From Planctomycetota bacterium (lineage in GTDB: Bacteria; Planctomycetota; Phycisphaerae; WQYP01), in contig JAJYZF010000004.1 of the NCBI GenBank assembly GCA_021800165.1, forward strand, positions 3,296 through 67,295: a stretch of 64,000 nucleotides of DNA. Reading direction: 5' to 3'. Below the pieces are notes generated by a model, which searched no databases, was not told the DNA's origin, and was given only the letters and a program-made list of their open reading frames with translations. Positions within the stretch are counted from its first letter, which is position 1, and each line of letters opens with the position of its first letter. Both the position numbers and the translations under genes were made by a program. Below are positions 9,829-37,473 of this stretch, in pieces.

Positions 9829-11495
9829 TGATCAAAACACTCCATTGGTACTTTCTGCGCGAACTGGGACGCATTTTTGTGTTGACCACCGGCGTGCTTA
9901 CCACCATTCTGGCATTCGGTGGTACCTTCAAACCGCTCACCAAACAGGGATTAACCTTGGTTCAGCTCATGCGGGTGCTGACCTATCTTATGCCCGCGAT
10001 GCTGGCCTATTCCATTCCGCTGGCCGCCCTTTTTGCGGCCGTCATGGTCTATTGGCGGTTAAGTACGGACAACGAAATCACCGGAGCCAGAGCCAGCGGA
10101 ATCAGTTTTCAATTCTTACTGGTGCCGGCGCTGGTGCTGGGGCTGGCTGTGGCGGCAATCGACTTGGCCTTTGTTGATTTTGTGGTCCCCGCATTTCTAC
10201 AAAAATCGTCCCATGCCATTCAAAGTGATGTGGCCTCTGTACTTCTTGATCATCTCGACAAGCATGAACCCTTCCAGGTTGGGGATATGGTCGTCTACGC
10301 CAATCAAGCCTATCGAATTCCAGTGCCCAAGCAGCTCCAGCCGCCCCAGGGCATCCGCCGCACCATTCTTCAACTGCGCGGGTTGGCGGCCACCACCCTG
10401 ACCAATGGCAAGCCAACCGCGGTGGTGCTGGCCAAGGGTGCCAACGTGCTCATCGACAAGGTGCGCGCCCGCAACCAGGTGGAGGTAGCCGTCCAATTGG
10501 ATGATGGAACCGCCTTCGATCCCAACAGCGTCCGGCAGCTCCATGGCACCGTGCGTTATCTACCGGCGGACGGTAAACCTTATGTCATCGGATCCTTGCT
10601 GCAAAACGTCCCCAAGTTTTTCAGCATCACCAAGTTGAATCGCCTTTACCAGAACCCTTACCAGTTCCGGCCCATCGCCGCGCTTAAAAGCAATCTCGAC
10701 CGGCTGCAGCGCTTTGCCGCCGTGGGAAATAACTATCTGCGACAATACTCTCCTGCAAAAGCCCTGCGCTTCAACCGTTTGAATCGCGCCGCCGGCCATA
10801 TTGTCGTCTACGCCCCAGCGGCATTTGTGAACCCGGATGATGTGTTTTGCCTGGCCGCCCATGGCAACAAGACTATCCGCCTGTGGGTTTACCGACATCA
10901 CAAAGTTACCGTCATTTACACCGCCGATTTTGCCGCACTTACGCTTCATGGCAGTTGGAACGCTCAACAGTCGATCCGCGGTTCCCTTACCCTCTCGGGC
11001 AACGTACGCATGAATAATCCCTCCATTGGCAAGGGATTTCATGCCGGACCCGCCACCATCGTACTTGGTGACCTGGCCATTCCACACCAGTTTGCCACTC
11101 TTCCACCGACACCCCGCATCGGCCTGGCCCCGCTGACCGCAGCGGAATCGCCGACGATAGTTAACTTAAAAGCCCAAATCGCCCGGCACATCAGCAGACT
11201 CGATCATGTCATCGAATCGGAAGTGCAAAGTCGCCGTTCCTTCGCATTTTCCTGCCTGGTGTTGGTCATGCTGGGGGCGGCCTTGGGTATTTTGCTGCAA
11301 GGGCATAACCCCCTGGCCGTGTTCGTGGTCGGTTTTTTCCCCGCGATGATTCTGATTTTGCTCATCACTACCGGGCGCACCATGGTGGTGCGCGCCACCG
11401 GGTCGGCCATGCCCGGACTATGGGTAATCTGGATGGGCAATGGCATTATTGTCTTGCTGAACCTGATCGTGTATAGCAGGCTCCTGCGAAAATAA
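9825..11495 (+). CDS. LptF/LptG-family LPS export permease (YjgP/YjgQ), long form
   Basis: N-terminus LHWYFLRELGRIFVL. TM helices at both ends flank a large periplasmic domain. C-terminal helices. Confidence 0.7.
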   Translation: MMIKTLHWYFLRELGRIFVLTTGVLTTILAFGGTFKPLTKQGLTLVQLMRVLTYLMPAMLAYSIPLAALFAAVMVYWRLSTDNEITGARASGISFQFLLVPALVLGLAVAAIDLAFVDFVVPAFLQKSSHAIQSDVASVLLDHLDKHEPFQVGDMVVYANQAYRIPVPKQLQPPQGIRRTILQLRGLAATTLTNGKPTAVVLAKGANVLIDKVRARNQVEVAVQLDDGTAFDPNSVRQLHGTVRYLPADGKPYVIGSLLQNVPKFFSITKLNRLYQNPYQFRPIAALKSNLDRLQRFAAVGNNYLRQYSPAKALRFNRLNRAAGHIVVYAPAAFVNPDDVFCLAAHGNKTIRLWVYRHHKVTVIYTADFAALTLHGSWNAQQSIRGSLTLSGNVRMNNPSIGKGFHAGPATIVLGDLAIPHQFATLPPTPRIGLAPLTAAESPTIVNLKAQIARHISRLDHVIESEVQSRRSFAFSCLVLVMLGAALGILLQGHNPLAVFVVGFFPAMILILLITTGRTMVVRATGSAMPGLWVIWMGNGIIVLLNLIVYSRLLRK

Positions 11496-12782: not shown

Positions 12783-14570
12783 ATGAAAATTCGTAACTTT
12801 TGTATCATTGCTCATATAGACCACGGCAAGTCCACGTTGGCCGACCGGCTCTTGGAACGATCCGGTGCCATCACCGAACGCGAAATGCAGGCCCAATTTC
12901 TTGATGATATGGAACTGGAACGCGAACGTGGCATCACCATCAAAGCCAGCGCGGTCTCGGTCCGCTATCAGCTTGATGGCCAAGATTACATGCTCAACCT
13001 GATCGACACCCCCGGCCACGTCGATTTCCACTATGAAGTGGCCAAGGCCCTCCAAGCCTGTGAAGGTGCTTTGCTGGTGGTGGACGCCACGCAGGGTGTA
13101 CAGGCTCAAACCGTCGCCAATGCCTACGCCGCCATTGAAGCCGGTCTGGAAATTATTCCCGTCATCAATAAAATTGATCTACCCAGTGCGCGGCCCGATG
13201 AAGTGGCCGAAGAGATGGAGCAAGTCCTGGGCATCGACGCTCTCTCCTGCGTTCGCATATCCGCCAAAAGCGGCTTGGGAATTGACGACCTTTTTCGCGC
13301 CATCTGCCTCAAACTGCCCGGACCCCAAGGCGATGCCGACGCGCCGCTCCAAGCCCTGATTTTTGACAGCAAATATGACGAGTACCGCGGCGTAATTGTT
13401 TATGTCCGCGTCATGAATGGCCGCATCGGCATGGGCCAGAAAATTCGCATGATGGGCCAGCAGCGGGTTTATCAAATTACCGCAATGGGAAAATTCGCCC
13501 CCAAAACCATCTCCGTGCCCAATCTGGCCGCCGGAGAAGTCGGTTTCTTTGTCGCCAACATCAAGGCCTTGGGCGACGTTACCATTGGCGATACCGTCAC
13601 CGATGTCAACAATCCCGCCGCTGAACCCCTCGCCGGGTACCGCCCCCCCAAACAGATGGTTTACTGCGATTTTTACCCCGGGCCGGATACCGAGTACACC
13701 CAACTGCGCGAAGCCCTCGAGCGTTTGCGCCTCAACGATTCCTCCTTCACCTTTGAGCCTGAAAATTCCGACGCCTTGGGTTTTGGCTTCCGTTGTGGTT
13801 TTCTGGGATTGTTGCACATGGAAATTGTGCAGGAACGCCTGGAACGGGAACAAAAGGTGCAAGTCGTACAAACCGCCCCTACCGTGCCTTACGAGGTCGT
13901 ACTCAACGACGATACGGTTAAAACCATTGACAGCGCTTCGGAACTGCCGGATCCCAGCAAACTCAAGGAAATTCGCGAGCCGATGATTCGTGCCAATATC
14001 ATCATCCCCGGCGAAAATATTGGCGATATTTCCAAGCTCTGCCAAGATCGCCGCGGCGTTTACCGTAAGACTGAATATATTGGCCCCCAACGTGTGATTC
14101 TTGAATATGACCTCCCGCTGGCGGAGGTTATTTTTGATTTTTTCGATCGCCTGAAAACCGCCACCCGCGGCTACGGCACCCTCGATTACAACTTTTTGGG
14201 ATTCCAGGCCGATGATCTGGTACGTATGGATATTCTCGTCAATGGTCAGGCCATCGGTGCCTTAAGCCTGATTGTTCACAAATCCAAGGCCGAAAGCCGT
14301 GGCCGCGCCATCATCCGCAAGCTCAAAGCCGAAATCGGACGCCATCTCTTTGAAGTACCGCTCCAGGCCGCAATCGGTTCACGCGTCATCGCCCGCGAAA
14401 CCATCAGTGCCATGCGTAAAAATGTAACCGCCAAGTGCTACGGCGGCGACGTGAGCCGAAAACGCAAACTCCTGGAAAAACAAAAGGAAGGCAAAAAGCG
14501 CATGAAGCAGGTCGGACGGGTCGAAATTCCCCAGGAGGCATTCATGGCCGTACTCGAACCCGGCGAATAA
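12783..14570 (+). CDS. lepA: Elongation factor 4 (LepA)
   Basis: [24 protein letters not shown]... with full G-domain motifs and the LepA C-terminus. The ORF-track start at 12513 is a spurious upstream extension that overlaps lptG. Confidence 0.95.
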
Positions 14571-14653: not shown

Positions 14654-15445
14654 ATGTCTTACCTGGCCAGCCCCGCCTTGACCGCCCGAAGTCTCAACCC
14701 TTTCATGGAGAATTTATTCATGCACCTGCGACAAAGCCTCTACCGACGTCTGGGCCGCTGGATCACCTGTGAATTTGAATTCAGCCGCGATGCCCGGCTC
14801 GGTTTACGCAATCGCTATGAAGTTGAAAGTTTTAAGGATGTGTTCTGCCATTTCTTCTATTGGCAGGTCTTCGGCACTCTGAAGTCTGCTCCGCGCTATA
14901 TTGTCGATTGCGGTGCCAATTGCGGTCACTTTGCCGTTCTAGCCGATCAGACGCTGCGCCGACGCTTTCCCGATTCCACCTGTGAATTCCTGCTCATTGA
15001 ACCCAATCCCCGGCTTGCACCCGTGCTCCGCCGAACCCTGCGCCAGGCCCACCTCAACGCCCGGGTGGTTCCAGCGGTCGTGGGTGCTAAACCCGGCCAG
15101 CAGACACTTTGGATTCACCCCCGCACTTACATGACCGCCAGCCTCGAGCCGTTTCGCGACGCCCGGCCATTTCCAGTTCAACAATTTGATCTTGCCGCGG
15201 AACTCCGCACCCGCCCCGCCGATCTGCTCAAGTTGGATATTGAGGGTGCGGAATTCCAATTGTTGGCGGATTTGGAAGACCAGTTTGAACGCATCAACGC
15301 TTTGGTGCTGGAAATTCACGGCCCAGTTGATCATCGAAAAGCCGAACTGGAGGCTCGTTTAGCCCGCGGTGGCTTTCACGCCCAGATCGGCCCACTCCCC
15401 CATTTTGACCATGAACTCGCCTTTTATACCCGTCAACCCCGGTGA
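14654..15445 (+). CDS. FkbM-family SAM-dependent methyltransferase
   Basis: IVDCGANCGHF (glycine-rich SAM motif) and LKLDIEGAEF, both typical of the FkbM family. ATG at 14654 (MSYLAS) chosen. Confidence 0.7.
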   Translation: MSYLASPALTARSLNPFMENLFMHLRQSLYRRLGRWITCEFEFSRDARLGLRNRYEVESFKDVFCHFFYWQVFGTLKSAPRYIVDCGANCGHFAVLADQTLRRRFPDSTCEFLLIEPNPRLAPVLRRTLRQAHLNARVVPAVVGAKPGQQTLWIHPRTYMTASLEPFRDARPFPVQQFDLAAELRTRPADLLKLDIEGAEFQLLADLEDQFERINALVLEIHGPVDHRKAELEARLARGGFHAQIGPLPHFDHELAFYTRQPR

Positions 15446-15477
15446 ACACCTTAAATCCGCCGGAGCGGCCCCATCGC

Positions 15478-15695
15478 CCTGGGCTGACGAAAATATCCGC
15501 CACTTCTCATCTCCCGAGGCCTCGGGATTGCGCCGTCGTCCAGCCCGGTCCCGAAGACTTTCGGGATTTGGCCGTGGCGTCCCGATGGATCGGGACTTCC
15601 GCCGGGCAAACAAAATGCAAAATCACCGTCTGCTCCCGCCGCCGAATCCCCCAACGCGCAACAGAATCAACTTTCGCACCACCCCCGTTATTTGC
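15478..15695 (+). repeat. Structured intergenic repeat, copy A (~218 nt). Candidate structured ncRNA or REP-like element
   Basis: About 90% identical to 21227-21443. Contains a long-range helix GGGCUGACG/CGUCGUCCAGCCC that encloses the palindrome CCCGAGGCCUCGGG, then hairpins CCCGAAGACUUUCGGG and CCCGAUGGAUCGGG. Lies between convergent genes. Confidence 0.6.
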
Positions 15696-15756
15696 CCAAT
15701 TCTCAAGGTTTTCATCAGTCCACCATCGCCCTCCTCCGGCCTGGTACCGCAGCCCG

Positions 15757-18372
15757 TCAAACCTGCCCAAGTATCTTCAGCCGCAACGGGTTATGTGAAC
15801 CGATGATCCGCTCCCGCCCCAGATCGGCTTTCCCAAAAGCGGCCAGTTCCACCGTTTTTAGCTTCACTGTGCCTCCCAAAACGGACACGGTTACCTCGGC
15901 GGCACCACCCGCCTTTTTCTTGATCGCCACGGTACCCCAGGCATATCCGGTGGACCAAAACCAGGTTGCTGATTTTTCCGCCGGCGGATTGAACACCATG
16001 CTTCCCGTTACGCCCGAATAATGAAAGCCCGTCAGGGCCAGCACAGTTCCCCATGCCGCCATCGGCCGTACATAATGATGCCCGCATTCCGGTTCATCAA
16101 ATGGCGAGCGCTTTTTGCCGTCGTGCCGGGCACGAACCGTTTTCACAATTTTAACCGCGTCCCCGATGCGCCCGGCATAGATGAGTTCCGTCGCCGCGGC
16201 ATATTCAAAGCCGCTCCATACCTCATGGCAGTACGGAAATGGAAATTGCGGCCTTTTACCCCGCGGATACGTACATACCAACATTCCCCCTTCCTCATTG
16301 AGCGCATACGTGCGTAGATGATTGAAATGACCGAACATCGACGACTTAAAATTATATTTCATCAGCGACTGCAGCGCCTTTTGAACATGCTCCCGCCGCG
16401 CCAGATCCCCCAGGCCCAGCACATGGGCCATCGTCTGTCCCACCAATTGATCCGCCAGACAACCCGCGCCGATCTGATGTACCGGATTGTGCAGATCTCT
16501 CTCCCCGATATTCCACATCAGCTCCGGATGAATGGCCGATGTATCCTCCGGCGGCAAAATTTGCTGCTCATAATATTCGCCGTTAAAAAGATGCTTATCC
16601 AGCCATTGCGACCCCCGAGCAAAAATATCCCGGCACTTCCGGGCCAGCGCATCCTCCCCCAGATATCCAGCCATCTCCTCCACCGCCCGCAACGCTCCCA
16701 GATACCAAAAGCCCACCTCCGGATTCGGGCCGAAATATTCCACATCCATCGTATTGTGCTGCGATCCCTCCATCACCCCGTCCTGATCGCCATCCCATCC
16801 ATGCTTGAGCCAGCAGAATTCCATCGCTTTACGGGCGCTGGGCCAACATTTTTTCAAGAATTCATCATCCCCGGAAAGCTGCCATTCCCGGTACAGCCGC
16901 ATCAAAGTGCCCATTTGGCCGTCCGCGGCCGCACCCTTCCACTCGCGCCCTTGGCTAAGTACCGGCAAACCCACCCGAAAACTCATCAGCCCCGTATCGC
17001 CCGTGGCCACATTAAAATCTGTATCACGCATCGACTTGGCCAACTGACCAAACACAAACGCCGTGGTCTGTTCATAGTTCCATACATGCGTGCATGATCC
17101 ATGGCAGCATCCCCCCAGATCATGGCACCCCTCCCAACCAAAAAACCGCCCATCCGCGGTCCGAAAGCACGTCTCGGTGCGCAGCGTGCTTAAATTAAAC
17201 AGGGCCGCTTCCTTTACCGCCTCCGGCAAGTCACTACCGCAAAATGCCTCGACAAACTCCACCGTCTTGGCTTCCAACCGCGGCAAGTCCCGGGCCGTGC
17301 GCACCGCAACATCCCAGGCATCCGCATATTGCGTGCAATAATAATTACCGACCTCTTCAAAAATCTTCTTGGCCTGAACTTCAGCCTCGGTTGCCGTAGG
17401 CGGCAAGTCCGGCAGCTTGGCCCAGCCGCTGCGATTGGGAAAATGCCAGGTGATCATGAAAGTCACACTACGGACCGATTTTGCCGGAACCTGTATCCGT
17501 ACCGCCAGTGAAGCCCGAGGATTCTGCTGCCCGTCACGTTGTCGATTTTCCAGCCTTCCGTCACCCGAAAAATCATCCCAGAAATCCAGCAGGCTGTTGC
17601 CCCAATCCAATTTTCCCCATGCTTCCCGATACGTCACCCCCCTCTCGGCGGTCGTAGTCAAAGCCAGGCTGCCCCATTGCGCAGCCGTTTTCTCCAACCC
17701 TTCCGAATACATGTACAACCCTTGTACCTTGGCATCCTTTCTGAAAACATTTCGGTTTTCGCGGGCCTGGCGATCATAGGCTTCGTAACCCTCAAAGTGC
17801 TTCTCGGGCGTCAGACGACCGTCCGCTCCGATAAAATTCGGCAACGCGCCGCATACCGACGCCGCCACCGGTTTGGACGAACGATTCTCCAGCACATACC
17901 GCAACACCATCACCGGAATCCCGCTGGCCTCCACATCCGTCGGTATCAGTGGATTGAACGTTTCCAGTCGCACATTCAGCGGAACATCCGGATCCGACAT
18001 CACCACTTGCCCCAGCGGATACGCCCCCTGAAACTCACACTTGCGGAACCGCGGAAGCATGGCGTTAACGACCTCCGTTCCGTGCCCTTTTCCGTCATAT
18101 TGCTCCGGGCCGATAATGCCCTCCAGAGCGCGCGTCACGGTTTTTCCCACGGCATCCTTGGTCCACAAAGCAAAAAAGCACGCGGCCTGCCGACCCTGCA
18201 CCAGATCAAAGCCCTTCGCCGGGCGATTGCAAATCTCCCAATCACGCAGGTTGCCGCGCCCGCCAATGGAAATGGTTCCCGTTCCGATACCCCCCACCGG
18301 CATGGCAAGATGAGCCAGGTGGCTTTGCGGATAAGATTTCAGGACCGGCCAGACCATTGTTTTCGTCTTCAT
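15757..18372 (-). CDS. Glycoside hydrolase family 116 (GBA2-type beta-glucosidase/glucosylceramidase-like)
   Basis: 871 aa. N-terminal GGIGTGTISIGGRG motif and a six-hairpin catalytic domain typical of GH116. AGGAG RBS before the ATG at 18370-18372. The ORF-track start is a TTG one codon upstream. Confidence 0.85.
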   Translation of the reverse strand: MKTKTMVWPVLKSYPQSHLAHLAMPVGGIGTGTISIGGRGNLRDWEICNRPAKGFDLVQGRQAACFFALWTKDAVGKTVTRALEGIIGPEQYDGKGHGTEVVNAMLPRFRKCEFQGAYPLGQVVMSDPDVPLNVRLETFNPLIPTDVEASGIPVMVLRYVLENRSSKPVAASVCGALPNFIGADGRLTPEKHFEGYEAYDRQARENRNVFRKDAKVQGLYMYSEGLEKTAAQWGSLALTTTAERGVTYREAWGKLDWGNSLLDFWDDFSGDGRLENRQRDGQQNPRASLAVRIQVPAKSVRSVTFMITWHFPNRSGWAKLPDLPPTATEAEVQAKKIFEEVGNYYCTQYADAWDVAVRTARDLPRLEAKTVEFVEAFCGSDLPEAVKEAALFNLSTLRTETCFRTADGRFFGWEGCHDLGGCCHGSCTHVWNYEQTTAFVFGQLAKSMRDTDFNVATGDTGLMSFRVGLPVLSQGREWKGAAADGQMGTLMRLYREWQLSGDDEFLKKCWPSARKAMEFCWLKHGWDGDQDGVMEGSQHNTMDVEYFGPNPEVGFWYLGALRAVEEMAGYLGEDALARKCRDIFARGSQWLDKHLFNGEYYEQQILPPEDTSAIHPELMWNIGERDLHNPVHQIGAGCLADQLVGQTMAHVLGLGDLARREHVQKALQSLMKYNFKSSMFGHFNHLRTYALNEEGGMLVCTYPRGKRPQFPFPYCHEVWSGFEYAAATELIYAGRIGDAVKIVKTVRARHDGKKRSPFDEPECGHHYVRPMAAWGTVLALTGFHYSGVTGSMVFNPPAEKSATWFWSTGYAWGTVAIKKKAGGAAEVTVSVLGGTVKLKTVELAAFGKADLGRERIIGSHNPLRLKILGQV

Positions 18373-18400
18373 CAAAAACTCCTGTTGGATAATCTCAAAC

Positions 18401-19486
18401 TTAATTTACTTCCAGTTGATCGCGCTGCGGCAGCGGCGGAAAAGGTGTTGTCGGCAACGTTTGATACCAGTACGCCACCGACGCTATATCATCCTGCAAC
18501 GGCAGATAGCGCCCGCCCGATCGCCACCCCAAGGCCTGAATCGTCACCCGCAGGTTCTCCTCAAAACGCACCGGATCCATGATGTGCCAGCGATACAACC
18601 CGAAACGCTGCTGCGCTTCATACAATCCGTTGGGCCTCCACACCTGCGATAGTCCCGCATACGGCGTGCTGAATTCCTGGTACTGATGCGTCACCTGATT
18701 TTCAAAATTGTAGCTGCCGCAGAAATAATCCTCCGTACCCGTGCCGCAGATGGTGGGAAACCGCCCATCACCATCCATAAAAAATTTGATTTCCCCTTCA
18801 CCCCACCACCCATTGCTGTTGACCCCCCATGCCATATACGTGCCCACGTATTGTCCACGGCCCGCCACCCCGTCCACAATGGTGTACACCTGCTTATACG
18901 GCAGCGGATTCACCCGTCGAAACTGCGCATGAAAATAGGCCGCGTCATCCGGAACCTCCGTCAGCGTATAGTTGATCTGGTAATACAGACTCATCTCCGT
19001 ATCGGCGATATTCGTCATGGTGATACGACACTTGCGACGAAACGGCATTTCCCAGTAACAATTCAGCGCGCTACCGGGATTCACACAGATCGCCAGCGAC
19101 GACAGCGGCGAAAATCGATTCCACCCGCACGCAAAAAAATCCCCCACCGGACATTCCACCGAAGGCACGGTCTGGTCATCCCAGTACATCCGCAAAATCG
19201 CGAATCTCCAGTGCCCTCCCGGCGTCATCCAGATCTGCTGAATAGCGCCCGAACCGTTTATTTCCGCCAGCGTGAAAGTCGCTCCGGCGGCAATTTTGAT
19301 GTACGGCGATACCTTCCAGCCCTGGCCAAGATCGCGCGCCGCCGGTGCCGCCGGACCATCCGTGGACATGCCGGCTTTCCCCTTCTCTCCGCTGAAATTC
19401 TCCGGACTAATCGAGCGCGTTTTAGCGGCCGAAAGCCGTGATAAATTTCCCAGGTTCATTCCCAAACCATTAAATGAGGTTGTCAT
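18401..19486 (-). CDS. DUF2961 / glycoside hydrolase family 172 protein
   Basis: GTGTEDYF motif and DUF2961 length. ATG at 19484-19486 (MTTSFNGLG) with an AGGA RBS. Confidence 0.75.
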   Translation of the reverse strand: MTTSFNGLGMNLGNLSRLSAAKTRSISPENFSGEKGKAGMSTDGPAAPAARDLGQGWKVSPYIKIAAGATFTLAEINGSGAIQQIWMTPGGHWRFAILRMYWDDQTVPSVECPVGDFFACGWNRFSPLSSLAICVNPGSALNCYWEMPFRRKCRITMTNIADTEMSLYYQINYTLTEVPDDAAYFHAQFRRVNPLPYKQVYTIVDGVAGRGQYVGTYMAWGVNSNGWWGEGEIKFFMDGDGRFPTICGTGTEDYFCGSYNFENQVTHQYQEFSTPYAGLSQVWRPNGLYEAQQRFGLYRWHIMDPVRFEENLRVTIQALGWRSGGRYLPLQDDIASVAYWYQTLPTTPFPPLPQRDQLEVN

Positions 19487-19605
19487 ATCTTTATCCTGTA
19501 AAAAAAGTTTCCTACGCCTTACACGTAAAAAAAACGATCCACCCACAACAATCCCGCAAGAAGGTTATCGCTTTTATCATTCGCGCGGACTCGCCGGAGC
19601 CGCTG

Positions 19606-20667
19606 TTATGCGTGGTGCGCACCGCTCCAATCGAAAATCGCCGAAAATCGCGTTCGCTCACGCAGGCCTGCATACGCTTCCGCGGCCTGCTTGTACGGTG
19701 CCACCAGATCAATAAAGTGCGCCGGATCAATACGCTTTGTCCGTATAGCCTCCACCGCTGCCTGCCTGTCTTCCACGCCGCGGTCAAACGGGCTGGCAAT
19801 AATCGCCGCTTCCCCCGGTATAAAGCCAAACGGATTCAGCGTGATCTTATCAATGTAATTCGCCTGCATGACGATTCGCGGCCAGTCACCATGGTAGAAG
19901 CTAATCGGCTCCTTCACATATTGCGTGCCGTACGCTTGCGGCTTTCGCCGAACAAGCTTATAGGCCAGCTCCACTCCGGGAATAACCCCGGACGCCTCCA
20001 CCACAATATCCGCTCCATTGTTGCAAAATACACCCACACGCTCGGCGATATCCGCGTCGCGCGCCGAAAACGCCGCCGCCACCCCAAAATTCAAGGCCCG
20101 CTCCAGCCGGCTTTCCTCCAGATCAACCACACAGACGCGGCAACCGCGGCTGACCAGCCACGCCGCCGAAAACGCTCCGATCATCCCCTGCCCGATCACC
20201 ACCGCCGTTTCACCCACTACCGGGCGCGCCGCCTCGACGCCGCGCAGGCTGATCGCCGCCACCTCCGCAATTGCATAATCCCTTGGCTCGGCACCTTTCG
20301 GCAGCAGTACCGGACGATCTTCCCCGCTCGTGCGATACAGGTGCATGGACGCCTGCCCGCCCCACTGCGATTTAATGCCGGCAATCGCTTTCGGATTGCG
20401 CCCCGTAATCCAATCCCCGACCCTCCATCCTTTCACCTCCCGTCCTACTTCCACCACCTGCCCCACCACGCAATATCCGGGAATCAACGGATAGTTGCCC
20501 TCCGCGCCGTAATGCCCGCCCAACACCCGCAGTTCCGTCCCCGGCGACACCATCGTGTAGGCGGTTTTAACCACAATTTCATCCGCACCGCAGGCCTCAA
20601 GCGCAAACTGCCCGTGGGTCACAGAATTCTTCGCCTGGAATACAATCGCTTCACACGAATTTTTCAT
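19606..20667 (-). CDS. Zinc-dependent medium-chain alcohol/polyol dehydrogenase
   Basis: GroES-like N-domain, Rossmann fold GQGMIGAFSAAWLVSRGC, zinc-ADH fold. First gene of the minus-strand operon with GH172 and GH116. Confidence 0.75.
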   Translation of the reverse strand: MKNSCEAIVFQAKNSVTHGQFALEACGADEIVVKTAYTMVSPGTELRVLGGHYGAEGNYPLIPGYCVVGQVVEVGREVKGWRVGDWITGRNPKAIAGIKSQWGGQASMHLYRTSGEDRPVLLPKGAEPRDYAIAEVAAISLRGVEAARPVVGETAVVIGQGMIGAFSAAWLVSRGCRVCVVDLEESRLERALNFGVAAAFSARDADIAERVGVFCNNGADIVVEASGVIPGVELAYKLVRRKPQAYGTQYVKEPISFYHGDWPRIVMQANYIDKITLNPFGFIPGEAAIIASPFDRGVEDRQAAVEAIRTKRIDPAHFIDLVAPYKQAAEAYAGLRERTRFSAIFDWSGAHHA

Positions 20668-29747: not shown

Positions 29748-30205
29748 GCGAAGACCCCGTGTTCCAATCGGCCAATCAGATTCTCGACTTCGCGTGCTCC
29801 AACGTCCGTCGCGGCGAAGTCCAGCGGGGTTTCTCCACCCAACCCCGATTGCCGGGTCTGTATCCACTTTCTCGCGGCTGCAACATCCCCCTCAAACAGA
29901 TCCACAGCCTGATCAAATATGGCCGATGCCCGCCACACCCGGTCGGATTCATCAGGTTGCAGTTTTCCTTCGCTTTGCCGCCGGGTCAGAGTACGTTGCG
30001 GGATGGCAACAAAGCGTGAGATTTCGGCCCACGGCAGTTGGGTCGCCTTCTGAAATCCGGCGAGTTTCTTGAACGGAAACCCGGCCCGGACCAACCGCAC
30101 GATCTTGACCGAATCGTTCGTGCCAATCCCAAGCCTGCGGGAGGCAACCCTCCTCTTTGCGCCCTTGATCTTGTACTTTCTCGCATGAGCCTCAGTAGTC
30201 GTCAT
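29744..30205 (-). CDS. Xre/MbcA/ParS-type antitoxin (DUF2384 C-terminal domain)
   Basis: AAGGAG RBS. C-terminal RASAIFDQAVDLFEGDVAAARKWIQTRQSGLGGETPLD is typical of RES-partner antitoxins. Confidence 0.7.
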   Translation of the reverse strand: MTTTEAHARKYKIKGAKRRVASRRLGIGTNDSVKIVRLVRAGFPFKKLAGFQKATQLPWAEISRFVAIPQRTLTRRQSEGKLQPDESDRVWRASAIFDQAVDLFEGDVAAARKWIQTRQSGLGGETPLDFAATDVGAREVENLIGRLEHGVFA

Positions 30206-30810
30206 AACAACTCCTTATTTGGCCAAATGGCACTATTGTACGCGCCAACTGGCTGGTAAACAAGGTATCGGTCTGACTTCCATTCCACCTTGACTGCCAC
30301 TCTCGCGTGTCCACCCGGCGACAAGCATGCCCGCACCTGACCTCAAGGCCACACCATTTTTGATAGGTGACTTAAGATCCAAGGTTTTCAAATCCTTCAG
30401 CAAAGACGCGTTTTCAAGATGGTCCGCATCGCCAAGGAGCCGCCTCTCGCGCCGTTCCCGAACCCAACGGCCCCGGCTTACGCAAAACGCCGCAAAGCCG
30501 GTTGGCCAGTTGCAGAGCAGCAAGCCTCCGTTCTCGGGGCGGCATTTTCCACACGAGCCAGCTCTTTCCCGGGCGTTTGAGAAATAGTTTGCGTCACCAG
30601 GCGGGGATTAACTTGCCGGTCGTTTTGTGGCCTTCGGAGATCATTTCAAACAGGAGCGGCCTCATTTTCCGGGTGCGGCGGTAACAGCGGAGCCAGGGGC
30701 GGTAATCCGGTGGTCAGGCCCTCGTTGCAGGGAAGGCCGAGCGGATGGCCGGGTTTTCGCCCATTGCGTGGTATGGGGCAAAATTGTAGACACCCAGCGA
30801 ATAGCTCCGG

Positions 30811-31254
30811 TCAGACCCATCGCGTGATCTTGTTTCCTTCCCGGTCAATAAAGTTGCCGGTCACGATCATGATGAGGTCGCAGATTATCCAGAGACCGAA
30901 ACCACCAAGGGTCAAAGGCATAAGTAGCCCTGTTCCAACCTTCCCCACGTAAAACCGGTGGACACCCAATATCCCCAGAAACCAACAGAGGAGTAGGACT
31001 GGAAGAATTCGCTCTGGGGTTCCAAGTTGAGCACCGCATTTTGGACAGGCGAGCGCGGTTGGGTGTATTTGGGCACCGCAGCCTGAGCATCGCCAGAGCC
31101 TTGAGGCCACTATGGCCTCGCGTTGGGCTGCCTGGCGGCTGAGCCGGTCGTGGCAGTTGGAGCAGACGATTGTATTTTGCCAGACCATCGCTTGTTCGTC
31201 TTTCCCCATTTGACGGGAACAGCATTCGCACTTTTCCACGGACTCTGTCGACAT
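30811..31254 (-). CDS. Zinc-ribbon / TM2-domain membrane protein
   Basis: Three CxxC pairs in the N-terminus. C-terminal TM2 domain (GVHRFYVGKVGTGLL...GGFGLWIICDLIMI). AAAGGA RBS. Confidence 0.6.
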   Translation of the reverse strand: MSTESVEKCECCSRQMGKDEQAMVWQNTIVCSNCHDRLSRQAAQREAIVASRLWRCSGCGAQIHPTALACPKCGAQLGTPERILPVLLLCWFLGILGVHRFYVGKVGTGLLMPLTLGGFGLWIICDLIMIVTGNFIDREGNKITRWV

Positions 31255-31690
31255 GTTAAAGTTCCTTTTCGTGGGGGCCGGGCGACGGGCTTACGAGTTT
31301 CCATATATTTTAGCCTACCGAATGGTTGCCGCAAGCTTGCGACGTAAATGCCCACATTGGCCCCTGTTGGCAGGGCCGTAAGGAATAGGTCTCTAATAAG
31401 TTCGGCGGTCAATGGGCGATTGAGTGTGAAAGGCTCCTATGAAATCGCTACACTGACTCGTACTTGGCTGGAGATACTCAGAGGGCGCTCGTCACCAGTA
31501 ATGGCGCGGACGATTCCCTCTTGGGGGAACGTAGCCTGCAGCCAGTTGGAAGGGAGAACATGATTATTTGGACGGTTTGCCCCAGGGGTGGGCTGCGGGT
31601 CTGAAAGAGCGTGTTTGGTACCAATCGGATCCCCGCGGTTCTGACGAGCCGGAACGAAGGAAGGCCCAGCGCATGCAGGTGTTGCATCTG

Positions 31691-33538
31691 TTACGGCACC
31701 GAGGACGGGATATTGCGGAGTTCACTTGCGGCTTGCTCCCGGAGATTATCCGGGGCATCACCCATTTTGAGTATATCACGATAACGGGCGGCAGCATCGG
31801 CGTATTCACAAGAAAGAGCGAGCAAACGCGATTGCGCCAAGATTGCCTTGGCCCTCTGATCGGTTGGTGCCTCCGCAGTCGCGGCCAGCGCGGCGTATTC
31901 CTGGATGGCCACCCGAAATCGCCCCTGCTCCGCATGGACTGCAGCACGGTTGTATTGTGCGTGGGCCCTTTGCGTGGCGGTTGAACCGGCGAGTTGAGCG
32001 ACGCGTTCGTAATCATCAATCTCGAGGTCAGGACGGCCCCGCATACCGTGTGTTATGGCGCGACTGATCAGAGCGTCGGCTTTCATTTCGGAGCTGCTTT
32101 CGGGTGCCGCCAGGATCGTATTAAAGTCCTCAATGGCGAAGTCGCACAATCCTGCGCTCCGGTAGGCGCGAGCTCTGCCGAATAGTGCGCTCAGGGCAAG
32201 GCTAGGCGGGACACCATCAATTTGCATGGCCTCGTTGAAATCGCTTATCGCGTCATGTGCTTGGCCGCAGCGTAGCCGGACGATACCGCGATTCCTTATC
32301 GCGTGCGCGGTGGTCTGCGGGCGCGCGCCCCGGACGCCAATTGCCAGGGTATAGAAATCGCAGGCCCAATTCGCGTAGCCGGAATTGCTGTAGCCGAGGC
32401 CAGCTTGAAGGTAATATTCGCCCCACCTTTCCGAGAGATCGAGGGACGAGAACAGCAGAAGCGACTCGGCGAAAACGACGACTGGGTGGCGATCATATTC
32501 CGGCGGGTCGGCCGCCGGCTGCGGCGAGACGGTTCCGCCAACTCGGGCGCCGATGATGAGGCCGTTCGTGCATCCCGCAGGCATCGCCGCTCGCGTGGCG
32601 GGCTCGCTGGGTAAGGTCGCGGCCCCACGGGCCAAATGGGCTTGATCTTCGTCGAGCAGTCGTTCCGGTGCCATTGCTGGTGGATCGTCGGCTACGGTGC
32701 CCCAGTCCTTTATGGGAACGCTGGTTTCGGCGCTCGACCTGCCGCCCAAGGTGCGCGTGGCCGCCGGGAATCCAAAAAGGGACGTGCAGCGGTTGGGGTT
32801 TCGGCCCACGATAATGGCCACAGAGTAGTCTCCGATTTCGTTGATTACCGTGTTGCCGCAAAAATTCGATTGGTCGCCAAGATTACCTTCCTGTATAGGA
32901 AAATGGATGCCGTTCCACCAGAGGTCCGCCTGTATCAAGCAGAAGTGGGATCCGAAAAATTTTGCTTGAAATGCCGTCTGTCCATTTCGGGCTATTGTGA
33001 ACATCCCGCCGTGGTAAACAATGTCATCGACGTCTGAGGTGCGGTAGGACATCTCATTATTTTGAATGATGAGCAACGGATTATCCATCTCGTCGTATAT
33101 TTTTAGACTTAAAAGCCAGTGATCTGATTCCCACCGTAGGCTGATAACGGAATTGCCGTCCATAGCCAGTATTATCACGTAACCGTCCTGGCGGGCGCGC
33201 ATGGAGAAGCTGTTGCTGGCAACGGAGATGCAGCACTCACGGGAGTGGGTTAGCCAAACTGTATCGGGAGTGCTAAGCGAATTCTGCCGGCGTTTGTTGA
33301 AGGGGGTAGAATTGGCCGCCCCGATCTCTTTCCGCGAAAAAATCCCGTTTGTTGTCTTTCTGTGGCATCCATCGCAGAGCATTGTGATATCATTTTCGAC
33401 GTGGCCCGTTTTGCTGTTGTAGCCATTAATATGGTGGTATTCGCAAATAGGCCTGCCGCACAGTACGCAGCCATAGCCACATCTTTCCCGCACTCGACGT
33501 TTTATTTCTGCGGGAATTTGCGGGCGATTCTGCGCCAT
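31691..33538 (-). CDS. Large HNH-nuclease / TPR-repeat protein (candidate defence effector)
   Basis: N-terminal HNH motif RCGYGCVLCGRPICEYHHINGYNSKTGHVENDITMLCDGCHRK. A central region of about 330 aa has no recognisable family. C-terminal TPR-like repeats run from about residue 430 to the end. [10 protein letters not shown] before the ATG at 33536-33538. Confidence 0.6.
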   Translation of the reverse strand: MAQNRPQIPAEIKRRVRERCGYGCVLCGRPICEYHHINGYNSKTGHVENDITMLCDGCHRKTTNGIFSRKEIGAANSTPFNKRRQNSLSTPDTVWLTHSRECCISVASNSFSMRARQDGYVIILAMDGNSVISLRWESDHWLLSLKIYDEMDNPLLIIQNNEMSYRTSDVDDIVYHGGMFTIARNGQTAFQAKFFGSHFCLIQADLWWNGIHFPIQEGNLGDQSNFCGNTVINEIGDYSVAIIVGRNPNRCTSLFGFPAATRTLGGRSSAETSVPIKDWGTVADDPPAMAPERLLDEDQAHLARGAATLPSEPATRAAMPAGCTNGLIIGARVGGTVSPQPAADPPEYDRHPVVVFAESLLLFSSLDLSERWGEYYLQAGLGYSNSGYANWACDFYTLAIGVRGARPQTTAHAIRNRGIVRLRCGQAHDAISDFNEAMQIDGVPPSLALSALFGRARAYRSAGLCDFAIEDFNTILAAPESSSEMKADALISRAITHGMRGRPDLEIDDYERVAQLAGSTATQRAHAQYNRAAVHAEQGRFRVAIQEYAALAATAEAPTDQRAKAILAQSRLLALSCEYADAAARYRDILKMGDAPDNLREQAASELRNIPSSVP

Positions 33539-33787
33539 TTGCCCCTCCAAGGAGGATAGCCGTTGAGGGCAGTCAGGCCGTACACAACAACGGTACGTCC
33601 GAGCGCAAAGAATCCTAAGCTTTTCGTTATTGCCACGCAAGCAGAACTGCGGAAGATATTACATTTCCTTCAGGGGCGCGGTCCAGCGGGTTACGGAGGC
33701 TCAGAACAGTGGGGGCGAAGCGGGATGCCTCTAGGGTGGTTGTTGGGTGTACCGTAAATATGAGATTCCCGCCGGTAATTTAGCCCT

Positions 33788-33816
33788 TTCCAATCCCTCC
33801 CACGCTATTCTTATCT
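33788..33816 (+). repeat. Direct repeat DR2 (att-like), pairs with 29120-29145
   Basis: See DR1. Confidence 0.5.
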
Positions 33817-34269
33817 CAAAGGGACTTGCGGCAACGTGGCGGGATCAATACCGCAGACTCATCGTCTGGAGGCTCTGCTTCTGACCAAAGAATCAGACAG
33901 GACCATTGCCCAGGTGTTGCACCTCAATCCCCGTCTGGTCCGGGCCTATCGCAAGATGTTTTTTGACGTTGGTGTGCCGCCACCCGTGTTGCTGCGGGTC
34001 CGGCCGCCGCGCGTCCAAACTCCCACCAGGCTGGCCGTCGCGGTATCGCAAGTTCGCTTTTACAGGCCTAAACTCAAAGCCGTGGCTTGGCCGCCAAAAG
34101 GCAAAAGCGGCCGGGGATTTTCCATGAGCCGGGGCTGGGCGGCGGGCTACCGGAGCGACCGAACCCCTCACATTTGGTACAATCCAAGGGGTTCAGGCCT
34201 CCGGAGGGGGTAGAACCTATTGGGTTGGTCGAAACGGATTAGTGAACAAATACCGAAGGCTCCAAAAAA

Positions 34270-35415
34270 ATGGCGAAAGTTGCGGTAAAAGAAAGTATTC
34301 TTCGCTGGGCCGTGGAACGTTCCAAGCGGTCGCCGGATGCGTTTTTGCCTAAATTTCCACACCTGCGCGATTGGGAAGAAGGCATCGCCATGCCGACCCT
34401 GCACCAGCTTGAGCAATTGGCCACGGCCACGCACACTCCGCTCGGCTATTTCTTTCTTGAGAAACCTCCCACAGAGGCGCTCCCAATTCCACATTTTCGC
34501 ACGCTCGTGGAGGAAACGCCAAACGATCCCAGCCCGGATCTTCTGGAAACCGTTTATTCGATGCAACGTCGCCAGGATTGGATGCGGGAATTTCTTATTG
34601 CCGAAAGCCACGCACCACTGCCATTCGTGGGTCGCGCAAAGCCCTCAGATTCCCCGGAGGTTCTCGCCCGGACGCTAAGAACAATCCTTGGATTTGCCGA
34701 TGGCTGGGCGGTCACCGCACCAAACTGGGCCGCAGCCCTGCGTAAGCTTCAACATGCCAGCGAACAAGCCGGCATCCTCGTCGCGGTAAGCGGCATTGTG
34801 GGCAACAACACACGCCGAAAACTTGATCCGGCGGAATTCAGGGGATTTGTTTTGGTGGACGACTACGCGCCGCTGGTATTCCTGAACGGGGCCGACGGGA
34901 AGGCGGCACAGATGTTCACCCTGGCACACGAACTGGCACATGTGCTCTTCGGCAGCAGCGCCGCCTTTGATTTGCGGCAAATGGCCCCGGCGCAGGGCGG
35001 GATCGAACGTGCATGCAACCGACTGGCGGCTGAGTTCCTTGTGCCGGCCGAACAACTCAGGGTGGCGTGGTTGCAGACCCGAAGCCAAGACGACCCCTGG
35101 CAATTTCTGGCACGCCAATTCAAAGTCAGCGAAATTGTTGCCGCACGGCGCGCCTTGGACCTGAAGCTGATCGGCCATGAAACGTTCCGCGAATTCTATG
35201 AAACCTACATCAGAATGGAAAGAAAAAAGCCCAAGGGCGACGGCGGCGATTTTTATCTAACCCAGAGCTCCCGCCTCGGAGGCCTCTTCGGCACCACCGT
35301 TGCACGAGCGGTTCGGGAAGGCAGGCTGCTCTATACCGAAGCTTATGAACTCACCGGCATGCGGGGGAAGACATTTGATAATTTTATAAGCCACCTGCCG
35401 GAACACAGTGCGTGA
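34270..35415 (+). CDS. XRE-HTH / ImmA-IrrE family zinc metallopeptidase (COG2856)
   Basis: N-terminal HTH (TLHQLEQLATATHTPLGYFF). HEXXH motif (TLAHELAHVLFG) in an ImmA/IrrE-like domain. Confidence 0.75.
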   Translation: MAKVAVKESILRWAVERSKRSPDAFLPKFPHLRDWEEGIAMPTLHQLEQLATATHTPLGYFFLEKPPTEALPIPHFRTLVEETPNDPSPDLLETVYSMQRRQDWMREFLIAESHAPLPFVGRAKPSDSPEVLARTLRTILGFADGWAVTAPNWAAALRKLQHASEQAGILVAVSGIVGNNTRRKLDPAEFRGFVLVDDYAPLVFLNGADGKAAQMFTLAHELAHVLFGSSAAFDLRQMAPAQGGIERACNRLAAEFLVPAEQLRVAWLQTRSQDDPWQFLARQFKVSEIVAARRALDLKLIGHETFREFYETYIRMERKKPKGDGGDFYLTQSSRLGGLFGTTVARAVREGRLLYTEAYELTGMRGKTFDNFISHLPEHSA

Positions 35416-35429
35416 AGGTAGTTCAAATT

Positions 35430-35915
35430 ATGTATCTCCTGGACGCGAATGTCTTTATTGAGGCCGCGAAACGCTATTATGCCTTCGACTTGGTGCCGCA
35501 ATTTTGGACGCGGCTGATTGAACAGGAGAAAGCCGGGCGATTATGCAGCATCGACCGCATCAGGGACGAACTGCGGAGGGGCAAAGATAGGCTGGCCCAA
35601 TGGGCCTCCACGGACTTTTCCGAGGCTTTCCGGAACTCGGCGGAGGCGAAGACCATCAAGGCTTACAGCAAAGTGATGAATTGGGTCCAAGAACAACCGC
35701 AATTGATTCCCGCCGCGAAAGATGAATTCGCCCGTTGCGCCGATGGATGGCTGGTCGCCTACGCGATTGCGCACGCATGTACAGTAGTGACGCACGAGGT
35801 ATTTGATGCAAACACCAGGCGCAGGGTGAAAATTCCCAATGTTTGCAGGGCGTTCGACATTCAGTACGTCGATACCTACGCGATGCTGCGACGCCTGGGC
35901 ATTCAACTGGTCTGA
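35430..35915 (+). CDS. DUF4411-family PIN-like protein (partner of COG2856)
   Basis: MYLLDANVFIEAAKRYY... D-rich PIN-like core. Translationally coupled to the ImmA gene (4-nt overlap if the upstream GTG is used). ATG at 35430 preferred. Confidence 0.7.
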   Translation: MYLLDANVFIEAAKRYYAFDLVPQFWTRLIEQEKAGRLCSIDRIRDELRRGKDRLAQWASTDFSEAFRNSAEAKTIKAYSKVMNWVQEQPQLIPAAKDEFARCADGWLVAYAIAHACTVVTHEVFDANTRRRVKIPNVCRAFDIQYVDTYAMLRRLGIQLV

Positions 35916-35949
35916 CCGCCCTACTCCGGACATTAAATTGAGAATGAAA

Positions 35950-37350
35950 TTTGCCGAGTATGTCTGCGGCCCGCAAAAAATGGCCACAACTCATCCCCAT
36001 CCGGACCGTCCCCACGCCCATTCCCCCGCGCCCACGCTCTGCGTACCTCTGCGTCCGGAGTTTATCCCGATGTCTATCGGGACGGTGAGCCCCCCCCGCG
36101 GCCGCAGCCGCCTTTACTCCCGACTCCCGACTCCCGTCTCCTGTCTCCTGACTCCTAACTCCCAAATCCTAACTCCTGCGGCCACAGCCGCTATTACCCC
36201 CCCCCATACCCCGCCTATCACTCAACCAAGCGGAACTCCCGATGGAAGGCTCATTCCCGATGGCTATCGGGACGCAGCCAAGCCTCGTTCCGCCTGGCCG
36301 CAGGCCCTTAAACCGCCTGCGATCATTGACAAGTAAATACGTGCCTCGCCACAGCGGCCCCGTCGAAGCCACAGGCGTGCACCACACCAAAATAAGGAAT
36401 TCGACTCATGCCCATGCTGCGCCTGAAACAAGCACAAAACCGACCACTAACCCGGAAAATTAAAAATGTTTGGACACTTTGGCCATCTTGGCCATCTTAC
36501 CCCAAAACCCCAACAAAACCGCCCATTTTTCAACCTGTCCAAGATGGCCAACCCCCAAAAACTTGGCCACCTTGGCCATCTTACCCGTCGCCGTCCTCCC
36601 GTTGAGGCATGGATGCCGAAATCCTCGATGTGGCAGGAGCCAAGCATCGGGAAGGCATGGATGCCGAAATCCTCGATGTGGCAGGAGCCACGCATCGGGA
36701 ACTCCTGACTCCTAACTCCCGTCGCGGCATGGACGCCGAAATCATCGATGCTGGAGGACCGGCGTATCGGGACCTCCCAACTCCTAACTCCTAACTCCTT
36801 ACCAAAAAAAACGTGTTGATCTTGTCGATCTTGATAATCTTGCCCAAAAATCCAACGCAGTGCCCCGTGTCCCTTCGTGTCCGATATTTATCCCGTCGTC
36901 ATTTAATCTGTGTAAGGCGTTTATCCCGAAGTCCATCGGGATGGATCCCCCTGTCCGCGCTCCGTGAACCTTTGTGTCCATTGTGGTAAAAAAAACGCCA
37001 TCCTTCTCCGTTCTTCGCGCCTTCGTCACTTCGTGTTTAACCCGTCGTCGCGCCCCCGTTAAGGCACGGATGCCGAAATCCCGATGTGGCAGGAGCCAAA
37101 CATCGGGACTGAAACCTGACCGCTTCCCCGCGTCCCCTGCGGTAAAAAATCGCCGCAGCTCTGCCGACCGCAGCCCTCCACCCGCCCGAGGGTACCGCCA
37201 CACATTCTGCCAAGCGCGGAAGCGGTGTGCTTGACAGAAAGTCCCATCCGCGACGCCCGGCACGATGCCCGCGGCAAAAAGGCGGAAGCGGGCGGTTGCC
37301 GCAAAATCTAATCGCACCCCCGCCCGAACTAAAAACCTCTGCCGCTTGCC
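35950..37350. repeat. 1.4-kb repeat-dense noncoding region upstream of tRNA-Lys
   Basis: About 48-bp tandem units GGCATGGATGCCGAAATCCTCGATGTGGCAGGAGCC(A/C)(A/G)GCATCGGGAA at 36606, 36654, a degenerate one at 36727 and a partial copy at about 37061. ACTCCTAACTCC-type tracts at 36120-36180, 36697-36727 and 36770-36800. TTGGCCATCTT direct and inverted copies at 36469-36590. CCCGATG-N-ATCGGGAC hairpins at 36065, 36255 and 36925. C8 and C9 tracts at 36090-36097 and 36197-36205. No credible ORF. Confidence 0.6.
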
Positions 37351-37400
37351 AAATCCGCTGCCCGCCTTAGAATTATAAACTGCACTCGCGCGGGGGCAAT

Positions 37401-37473
37401 GAGGCCGTAGCTCAGCTGGTAGAGCAACAGACTTTTAATCTGTGGGTCCTGGGTTCGATCCCCAGCGGCCTCA
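37401..37473 (+). tRNA. tRNA-Lys (anticodon UUU)
   Basis: GAGGCCGTAGCTCAGCTGGTAGAGCAACAGACTTTTAATCTGTGGGTCCTGGGTTCGATCCCCAGCGGCCTCA. Cloverleaf folds with the anticodon loop CTTTTAA. CCA is not encoded. Confidence 0.9.

Follow-up and report, generated by a model that had tools for sequence, protein, structure and literature searches.

Intergenic repeats of an uncultured Planctomycetota lineage very probably form a previously undescribed MITE family

Introduction

Inverted ends together with a flanking duplication are the signature of a transposable element. Among bacterial MITEs that carry it are the Correia/NEMIS elements of Neisseria, RUP of Streptococcus pneumoniae, Nezha of cyanobacteria, and ERIC. 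To our knowledge, transposition of the HUH/RAYT type makes no target duplications and requires no terminal inverted repeats. Direct repeats of 8–10 bp are made by insertion sequences of several types, including ISAs1 (with CAGGG ends), the IS903 group, IS256, and ISKra4. Elements of the IS1016 group, which belongs to the IS1595 family, make 7–9-bp repeats, and one of them, ISApl4, has perfect 14-bp ends (GGGGCTGTACTAGA) and 8-bp direct repeats (PMC12561309). The definition of a bacterial MITE that we apply is taken from a study of CGTC-tagged REP palindromes, which reports no dedicated transposase for them (PMC3733652).

Here, we analyse a repeat found in a 64-kb stretch of DNA from a Planctomycetota bacterium (hereafter, the window). 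The window is 99.99 per cent identical to contig DAHZYB010000010.1 of the metagenome-assembled genome (MAG) GCA_027436015.1, whose contigs were found via the PIN protein encoded in the window. An initial annotation, made from the sequence alone, had offered the repeat as a candidate non-coding RNA or structured REP element. We conclude that its copies very probably belong to a family of MITEs, that is, of non-coding, non-autonomous DNA transposons, 215–243 bp in length.

Results

Two full copies lie in one gene neighbourhood

The window contains two full copies of the repeat, c1 and c2, which are situated among the following features.

Ends at 14570, plus strand: LepA gene (gene calls and Pfam)
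14720-15445, plus strand: FkbM-type methyltransferase gene (gene calls and Pfam)
15480-15722, plus strand: copy 1 (c1), full long-form copy of the probable MITE, 243 nt (copy alignment; nhmmer E = 1e-87)
15757-18372, minus strand: GH116 gene (gene calls and Pfam)
18401-19486, minus strand: GH172/DUF2961 gene (gene calls and Pfam)
19606-20667, minus strand: zinc-type dehydrogenase (ADH) gene (gene calls and Pfam)
20668-22183, no strand: 1.5-kb spacer that contains c2 (gene calls)
21229-21470, plus strand: copy 2 (c2), full long-form copy of the probable MITE, 242 nt (copy alignment and nhmmer)
22184-22639, minus strand: PIN gene (gene calls and Pfam)

The two copies are 88 per cent identical over their full 242–243 nt, with a best-conserved stretch of direct copies (15477-15684 and 21226-21433) that reaches 92 per cent identity over 208 nt. 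No further full copy is present within the 64-kb window. The initial annotation had reported two copies of about 90 per cent identity in the same orientation; we find them at those places, but it had drawn them too short and had missed their ends. When the copies are aligned with their flanks, the similarity reaches approximately 15722 and 21470, about 27 nt past the limit first given. Outside of the inverted ends described below, the flanks of c1 and c2 are unrelated in sequence. c1 is located between the stop codons of the convergent FkbM-type methyltransferase and GH116 genes, about 35 nt from each, whereas c2 lies within the 1.5-kb spacer, with the PIN gene on one side and the ADH–GH172–GH116 cluster (start at 20667, minus strand) on the other.

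As had been noted earlier, neither copy overlaps a credible open reading frame: the frames that run through c1 and c2 have no Pfam matches, and a search of a collection of 5.8 billion proteins, first with a six-frame translation of the element and then with an alignment of the +0 frame, returned no homologues. In a local phmmer test, a known 232-aa frame would have scored 3e-15, and such spurious frames are therefore not indexed in the protein collection. The short form of the element, found elsewhere in the genome, also shifts the reading frame relative to the long form.

The surroundings of c2 are themselves variable. Window positions ~22000-36000 form a variable island next to a tRNA gene, full of genes of toxin–antitoxin and defence type (PIN, DUF4238, DUF3800, HNH, CsrA, RES-Xre, TM2, and IrrE/M78 with DUF4411). 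Synteny with a sister lineage stops right after the PIN gene (contig L033). c2 lies at the island edge. Just upstream of the tRNA gene (37401-37473) lies a non-coding, repeat-rich stretch of 1.5 kb (35900-37400), with units such as GGCATGGATGCCGAAATCCTCGATG...CATCGGGA (36583-37100), runs of CTCCTAACTCC/CTCCCGACTCC, and TTGGCCATCTTGGCCATCTTACCC motifs; a unit of this kind, 91 per cent identical, recurs near another copy of the element elsewhere in the genome (c3; L002 19356-19464). The gene content, with LptFG, many sulfatases and glycoside hydrolases, and ECF sigma factors of the PF07638 type, would fit a diderm of the Planctomycetota/Verrucomicrobiota kind.

The copies have 14-nt inverted ends and 9-bp target-site duplications

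Our attention was drawn to the element ends by the minimum-energy folds, in which the beginning of each copy pairs with its end; the following features were located there.

15471-15479, no strand: left target-site duplication of c1, CCATCGCCC (read from the sequence)
15480-15493, plus strand: left terminal inverted repeat of c1, TGGGCTGACGAAAA (pattern scan)
15709-15722, minus strand: right terminal inverted repeat of c1, TGGACTGATGAAAA on the minus strand (12 of 14 positions equal to the left end)
15723-15731, no strand: right target-site duplication of c1, CCATCGCCC (read from the sequence)
21229-21242, plus strand: left terminal inverted repeat of c2, TGGGCTGACGAAAA (pattern scan)
21457-21470, minus strand: right terminal inverted repeat of c2, AGGGCTGACGAAGA on the minus strand (pattern scan)

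Across the family, the ends form an imperfect inverted repeat of 14 nt, with TGGGCTGACGAAAA on the left and TGGRCTGATGAAAA on the right (the pair is also written TGGGCTGACGAAAA / TTTTCATCAGYCCA; in c1, it reads TGGGCTGACGAAAA and TTTTCATCAGTCCA). The ends match at 12 of 14 positions in each of the four full copies that we describe, and all 11 core positions are complementary in c2. When up to two mismatches are allowed, TGGGCTGACGAAAA has four matches in the window, against 0.71 expected, and all four are situated exactly at the two ends of c1 and c2, in inverted orientation. The right-end variant of c1, in which position 9 of the 14-nt end TGGGCTGACGAAAA is T instead of C (GACG to GATG), recurs in c3, in c4, and in a sister family from metagenomes.

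Perfect 9-bp duplications abut these ends in three of the four full copies, and all three differ from one another: besides the c1 duplication listed above, c3 has GGGTAGGGC and c4 has GGCTGGGGC, each on both sides (for these two copies, the duplications are also written GGGTAGGGC and GCCCCAGCC). The chance of each such duplication is about 4^-9. Around c2, no target duplication is recognisable. All three known targets are 9-mers rich in G+C (read on the G-rich strand, GGGCGATGG, GGGTAGGGC, and GGCTGGGGC) that lie a few bases past stop codons, a location that may reflect either a target preference or simply the places where insertions are tolerated. Inverted ends and a flanking duplication on a unit of 243 nt without coding capacity lead us to the MITE reading, and the lengths of the full copies (243, 242, 215, and 215 nt) lie within the MITE size range of roughly 70–300 bp, with a maximum of ~500 bp.

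A sister lineage retains the empty site of c1

c1 arose through insertion with a 9-bp duplication, for which an empty site in a sister lineage is direct evidence. Cluster members of the FkbM protein led to sister-lineage contigs (L046-L049, one of which is GCA_027435935.1) with flanks that are 89–92.5 per cent identical to the window. On these contigs, 59 nt separate the stop codons of FkbM and GH116, a single TTATCGCCC is present, and the element is absent (...GAGGCCTTATCGCCCTCCTCCGGCC...), although the same gene cluster and its neighbours are kept. At the same site, the window has CCATCGCCC, the 243-nt element, CCATCGCCC again, and then TCCTCCGGCC, and its spacer of 311 nt equals the sum of 59, 243, and 9 nt. 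When L046 is compared to the window with BLAST, the two resulting alignments share 8 nt at the junction.

The element is likewise missing from more distant relatives (L050-L054 and L031/L032), but these have further deletions there, and in the relatives the regions of c2 and c3 are rearranged, so that no empty-site comparison is readable. In one distant relative (~86 per cent identical; L031 11789-12320 and L032, compared to window 14871-15814), most of the FkbM gene has been deleted, with 166 nt of its 5′ part remaining. The LepA–GH116 spacer is therefore a site of recurrent rearrangement.

Further copies are dispersed in the genome and disturb its assemblies

In MAG contigs read near chosen genes, the family comprises at least four full copies and two decayed fragments, located at unrelated intergenic sites. 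Assembly GCA_027436015.1 contains c1, c2, and c4, and c3 is found in other assemblies of the same species (L022, L026, and L027). The contigs with c3 were reached via the neighbouring CarboxypepD_reg protein in the protein collection. This copy is a 215-nt short form between the CarboxypepD_reg gene and rhaM that starts 3 nt past the stop codon of the former and is 85 nt from that of the latter. c4, reached via the URO-D locus, is likewise 215 nt long, is 99.5 per cent identical to c3, and lies in the opposite orientation on contig DAHZYB010000009.1 (L036), between the URO-D gene and an ABC ATPase gene, 8 nt past the URO-D stop codon. One JGI contig (L002/L023) agrees with the window as far as the right part of c1 and then has a different left flank, and the left half of its copy is without all three hairpins of c1; this foreign flank and hairpin-less half indicate a third copy elsewhere in the genome. 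The fragments are as follows.

21077-21147, plus strand: decayed fragment of another family member, equivalent to short-form positions ~34-103, ~80 nt left of c2 (blastn, 80 per cent identity over 54 nt, E = 6e-7; nhmmer E = 7e-4)
L022 8983-9029: second decayed fragment

In a set of 185,579 species' genomes, an exact scan with a 36-mer gave no match and a scan with the 21-nt left end gave one chance hairpin only, in a Burkholderiales MAG; since neither scan produced a real match, the species is absent from this set. There was also no match in a metagenome scan with a 30-mer that is invariant across all copies, nor any match to the element in a plasmid collection.

At dispersed repeats that are longer than the k-mer, assemblers yield contigs that are broken or have swapped flanks. 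Three contigs (L029, L030, and L042) end 29 nt inside the element. In several other public contigs, the left flank of c3 is joined to the right flank of c1 or c4, with duplications that do not match: L023 (JGI Ga0438459_0000250) 11039-11253, L024/L038 (GCA_027436035.1 DAHZYC010000017.1), L025, and L028. These swapped flanks are due either to chimeric assembly across the 215-nt repeat or to real recombination between c3 and c4, and they call for caution among users of MAGs from this organism. The element accounts for breaks and wrong joins in public assemblies (the JGI metagenome and GCA_027436035.1).

Contigs also break at another mobile element. About 3.2 kb left of window position 1, many of them terminate in the 3′ end of a gene for an ISKra4-like transposase (L008 1-233; starts of L009, L011, and L014). 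The ISKra4-like insertion sequence ends with ...GGAGTTACACCCG, adjoining CCTAATGCCACAAACC. Contig L013 (1288-1320), from another sample, is without it at this place, which represents a second insertion polymorphism.

Long and short forms differ in three hairpin modules

The long form of the element (c1 and c2) has three TCCCGA-loop-TCGGGA hairpins, whereas the short form (c3 and c4) has none and carries 9, 6, and 9 unrelated nucleotides in their places. In c1, these optional modules are located as follows.

15512-15527, plus strand: hairpin module 1, TCCCGAGGCCTCGGGA; the short form has CGACCCGTG instead
15549-15566, plus strand: hairpin module 2, TCCCGAAGACTTTCGGGA; the short form has CCATTG instead
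15579-15596, plus strand: hairpin module 3, GTCCCGATGGATCGGGAC; the short form has CCAGCAGGC or GCAGCAGGC instead

The architecture described in the initial annotation is present in c1 and c2: the hairpins TCCCGAGGCCTCGGGA, TCCCGAAGACTTTCGGGA, and TCCCGATGGATCGGGA were located, GGGCTGACG is able to pair with the internal CGTCGTCCAGCCC as an outer helix, and there is an A-rich stretch. c1 and c3 are identical from position 118 to the end, and their left halves differ only at the three hairpin sites; c2 has its hairpins in common with c1 and a diverged right half. Judged from this distribution of shared segments, the copies are mosaics, probably because of gene conversion between them. The short form is without hairpins and yet was inserted, and the hairpins are thus needed neither to keep nor to insert the element. 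Moreover, the three sites vary independently, as indicated by a mixed-state fragment (L002 19142-19188) in which site 2 is in the short state and site 3 carries a hairpin, GTCCCGATGAATCGGGAC.

The palindrome TCCCGA-N(3-8)-TCGGGA has eight instances in the window, compared to 0.05 expected, and four of them are outside of the element (21605-21620, 36065-36082, 36255-36272, and 36924-36941). CGTC stands before about half of all instances, on one strand; hairpin module 3, for example, is preceded by a C that completes this tag. In this respect, the palindromes recall the CGTC-tagged REP superfamily (PMC3733652), a resemblance that we treat as a lead only. Based on the long and short forms, the mixed-state fragment, and the presence of the palindrome alone in other spacers, the hairpins could conceivably be a separate REP-like module that enters and leaves the MITE independently at three fixed sites, although we consider this unlikely. 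If true, one small mobile or convertible element would be nested inside another, and hairpins just past a stop codon could be stabilisers of 3′ untranslated regions, terminators, or protein-binding sites.

It is very improbable that the element as a whole is a REP/BIME-type mosaic of palindromes, spread by a RAYT (an IS200/IS605-like HUH tyrosine transposase) that acts on single-stranded hairpins. The excess of palindromes, half of them outside of the element, would fit such an origin, as would the 5′ CGTC of several instances, shared with the CGTC-tagged REP superfamily (PMC3733652), and the position of the copies past stop codons, between convergent or co-directional genes, which is the usual REP setting. 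It is difficult to reconcile, however, with perfect 9-bp duplications at three copies and 14-nt inverted ends at all of them, with the empty site, according to which the whole 215–243-nt unit moves in one piece, and with the short form, which has no such palindromes and was nevertheless inserted, with duplications. No RAYT gene was seen. REPs are units of 20–40 bp with a GTAG or CGTC tag and with neither inverted ends nor duplications, and the whole element does not conform to this description; a REP-like reading may apply to the small hairpins as nested modules. Of the earlier designation as a repeated, structured extragenic element, the repeat nature is retained, and the MITE reading takes the place of REP.

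No support for an RNA gene shaped by structural selection

The initial annotation had proposed a novel non-coding RNA as one candidate, with selection on its structure. Under this explanation, the copies would be paralogs of an independently transcribed, structured small RNA gene that possibly titrates CsrA/RsmA via the GGA of a UGGA loop. Three G+C-rich hairpins in c1 and c2, one of them with a GGA loop, are in its favour, and so are a csrA gene (PF02599) in the same region, ~6 kb from the PIN gene, and an A:U to G:U change that retains a pair. We nevertheless regard it as hardly tenable. Two of the four full copies, c3 and c4, are without all three hairpins and are otherwise nearly identical to c1. 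The GGA is confined to the loop of one hairpin (UGGA), which is absent in half of the copies, and it is not kept in related hairpins elsewhere, whose loops are UGAA, UGCG, GUCUA, and similar.

The differences between the copies had been said mostly to preserve pairing. Between the hairpins of c1 and c2, we found no compensatory double change; there are one A:U to G:U change, located in hairpin 2 and not in the third stem as first described, one loop change, and one pair-breaking change (U:A to C.A) in hairpin 3. Six sequences were aligned, with two strains represented for c1 and for c4 and one sequence each for c2 and c3; across them, the outer helix shows no variation and is therefore uninformative about structural selection. 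Alignment cells in which both sides of a pair are changed stem from the replacement bases of the hairpin-less copies, and there are no compensatory changes among true homologues. The RNAalifold consensus pairs the two ends, with a covariation term of -0.5 kcal/mol that does not amount to meaningful covariation. Fold-energy z-values on the plus strand are -1.5 for c1 and -1.3 for c2, which is no significant excess, and -2.4 on the minus strand of c1.

An Rfam search recovered only two tRNAs in the window and nothing in 15300-15900 even at E<=10, and a consensus search detected no promoter-like or terminator-like sites inside either copy. The orientation relative to the upstream gene varies among copies, with c4 being antisense to URO-D. 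In addition, an RNA gene leaves the inverted ends, the target duplications, and the empty site unaccounted for. A MITE is, moreover, an outcome that the author of the initial annotation had named as speaking against a non-coding RNA. We thus see no support for an RNA gene under structural selection; the element may be co-transcribed with its neighbouring genes.

Finally, it is barely credible that c1 and c2 are segmental-duplication or recombination-scar ends bracketing the ADH–GH172–GH116 cluster as a composite transposon or direct-repeat cassette, even though they flank this three-gene cluster (15757-20667) exactly and in direct orientation: c1 has its own duplication on both sides and was therefore inserted alone, the sister lineage has the cluster and its neighbours without c1 (for these two reasons, we reject a composite transposon), the sequences outside of c1 and c2 are unrelated, and other copies are at unrelated loci.

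A sister family has the same asymmetric ends

A scan of the metagenome collection for two ends at MITE spacing gave three short contigs (SMVB01065523.1, SMVB01375860.1, and SMVA01237539.1) with a sister element of ~220 nt. Its left end is that of the window element (GGGCTGACGAAAAT), and so is its right-end variant (GGGCTGATGAAAAT), whereas the interior is largely different and has other long palindromes. The common ends indicate a shared transposase type, and the conserved asymmetry between left and right argues for descent of both families from one insertion-sequence type. No clean duplications surround the three metagenome copies, which are on short contigs that may be chimeric. On two of these contigs, SMVB01065523.1 (L057 1674-1912) and SMVA01237539.1 (L059 345-588), neighbouring elements of the sister family are arranged head to tail, exactly 9 nt apart (e.g. 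GCCTAAGAC), which suggests insertion beside, or targeting of, existing copies.

In ~214 kb of non-redundant sequence from the species and its relatives, there is no autonomous element that combines matching ends with a transposase, and no transposase came up when the unannotated central part of the window was scanned against Pfam. Two candidates were rejected. The ISKra4-like insertion sequence found where contigs break to the left of the window is not cognate, as its end is GGGTGTAACTCC, and in a relative (L033), the 518-aa HTH/rve transposase encoded next to the PIN gene is without matching ends.

Discussion

Inverted ends, 9-bp duplications, dispersed copies, an empty site, and the absence of coding capacity together make it very probable that the copies constitute a MITE family. 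The family is previously undescribed, but it is an ordinary kind of bacterial repeat. It is defined by the sequence of its ends, a duplication of 9 bp, and the existence of a long and a short form, and it belongs to an uncultured lineage that is known only from MAGs. Its recognition also means that one candidate for a new RNA gene proved false.

By analogy with what is established for DDE transposons and MITEs in general, the 14-nt ends would be bound in trans by a transposase of the DDE type whose gene lies in a cognate insertion sequence elsewhere. This enzyme would excise or copy the element and insert it at a 9-bp staggered cut, and repair of the gaps at this cut would generate the 9-bp duplication. 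Effects on neighbouring genes, for example, of hairpins in 3′ untranslated regions, would be a by-product. The asymmetric ends that are common to the second family point to a transposase type that can be searched for.

The ends of the MITE bear some resemblance to those of the IS1016 group of the IS1595 family, which we offer as a lead only. Like the MITE, ISApl4 has 14-bp ends with GGGCTG by the tip (GGGGCTGTACTAGA vs. TGGGCTGACGAAAA in the MITE), and the 9-bp repeats of the MITE are within the 7–9-bp range of the IS1016 group. The ends of ISApl4 and the MITE coincide at 6 of 14 positions, and ISApl4 prefers A/T-rich targets, whereas the three MITE targets are G+C-rich; a gene for an IS1595-type transposase (zinc ribbon and DDE) beside such ends was not found in the ~214 kb examined.

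With CsrA-sequestering RNAs of the CsrB/RsmY/RsmZ type, the element shares one GGA-loop hairpin and a nearby csrA gene. These RNAs carry multiple loop GGA motifs as well as a promoter and a terminator, whereas the MITE has one GGA loop (none in half of the copies), no transcription signals, and no Rfam match.

The CGTC-tagged REP palindromes (Di Nocera et al. 2013, PMC3733652) are similar to the nested palindromes of 16–18 nt, several of which are preceded by CGTC, and single palindromes are found in further intergenic regions of the window as well. In contrast to these REPs, the tag accompanies about half of the instances here, where CGTC would be part of the stem. The likeness is limited to the modules and does not extend to the 243-nt element.

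The closest counterparts of the whole element are the bacterial MITEs. Like them, it is a non-coding unit within 70–300 bp that has terminal inverted repeats, target-site duplications, and internal hairpins, occurs in several intergenic copies, often just past genes, and is present or absent between close lineages. It has no sequence similarity to the described families and no match in Rfam, which includes some such repeats, and it differs from them in having long and short forms that are set apart by three hairpin modules.
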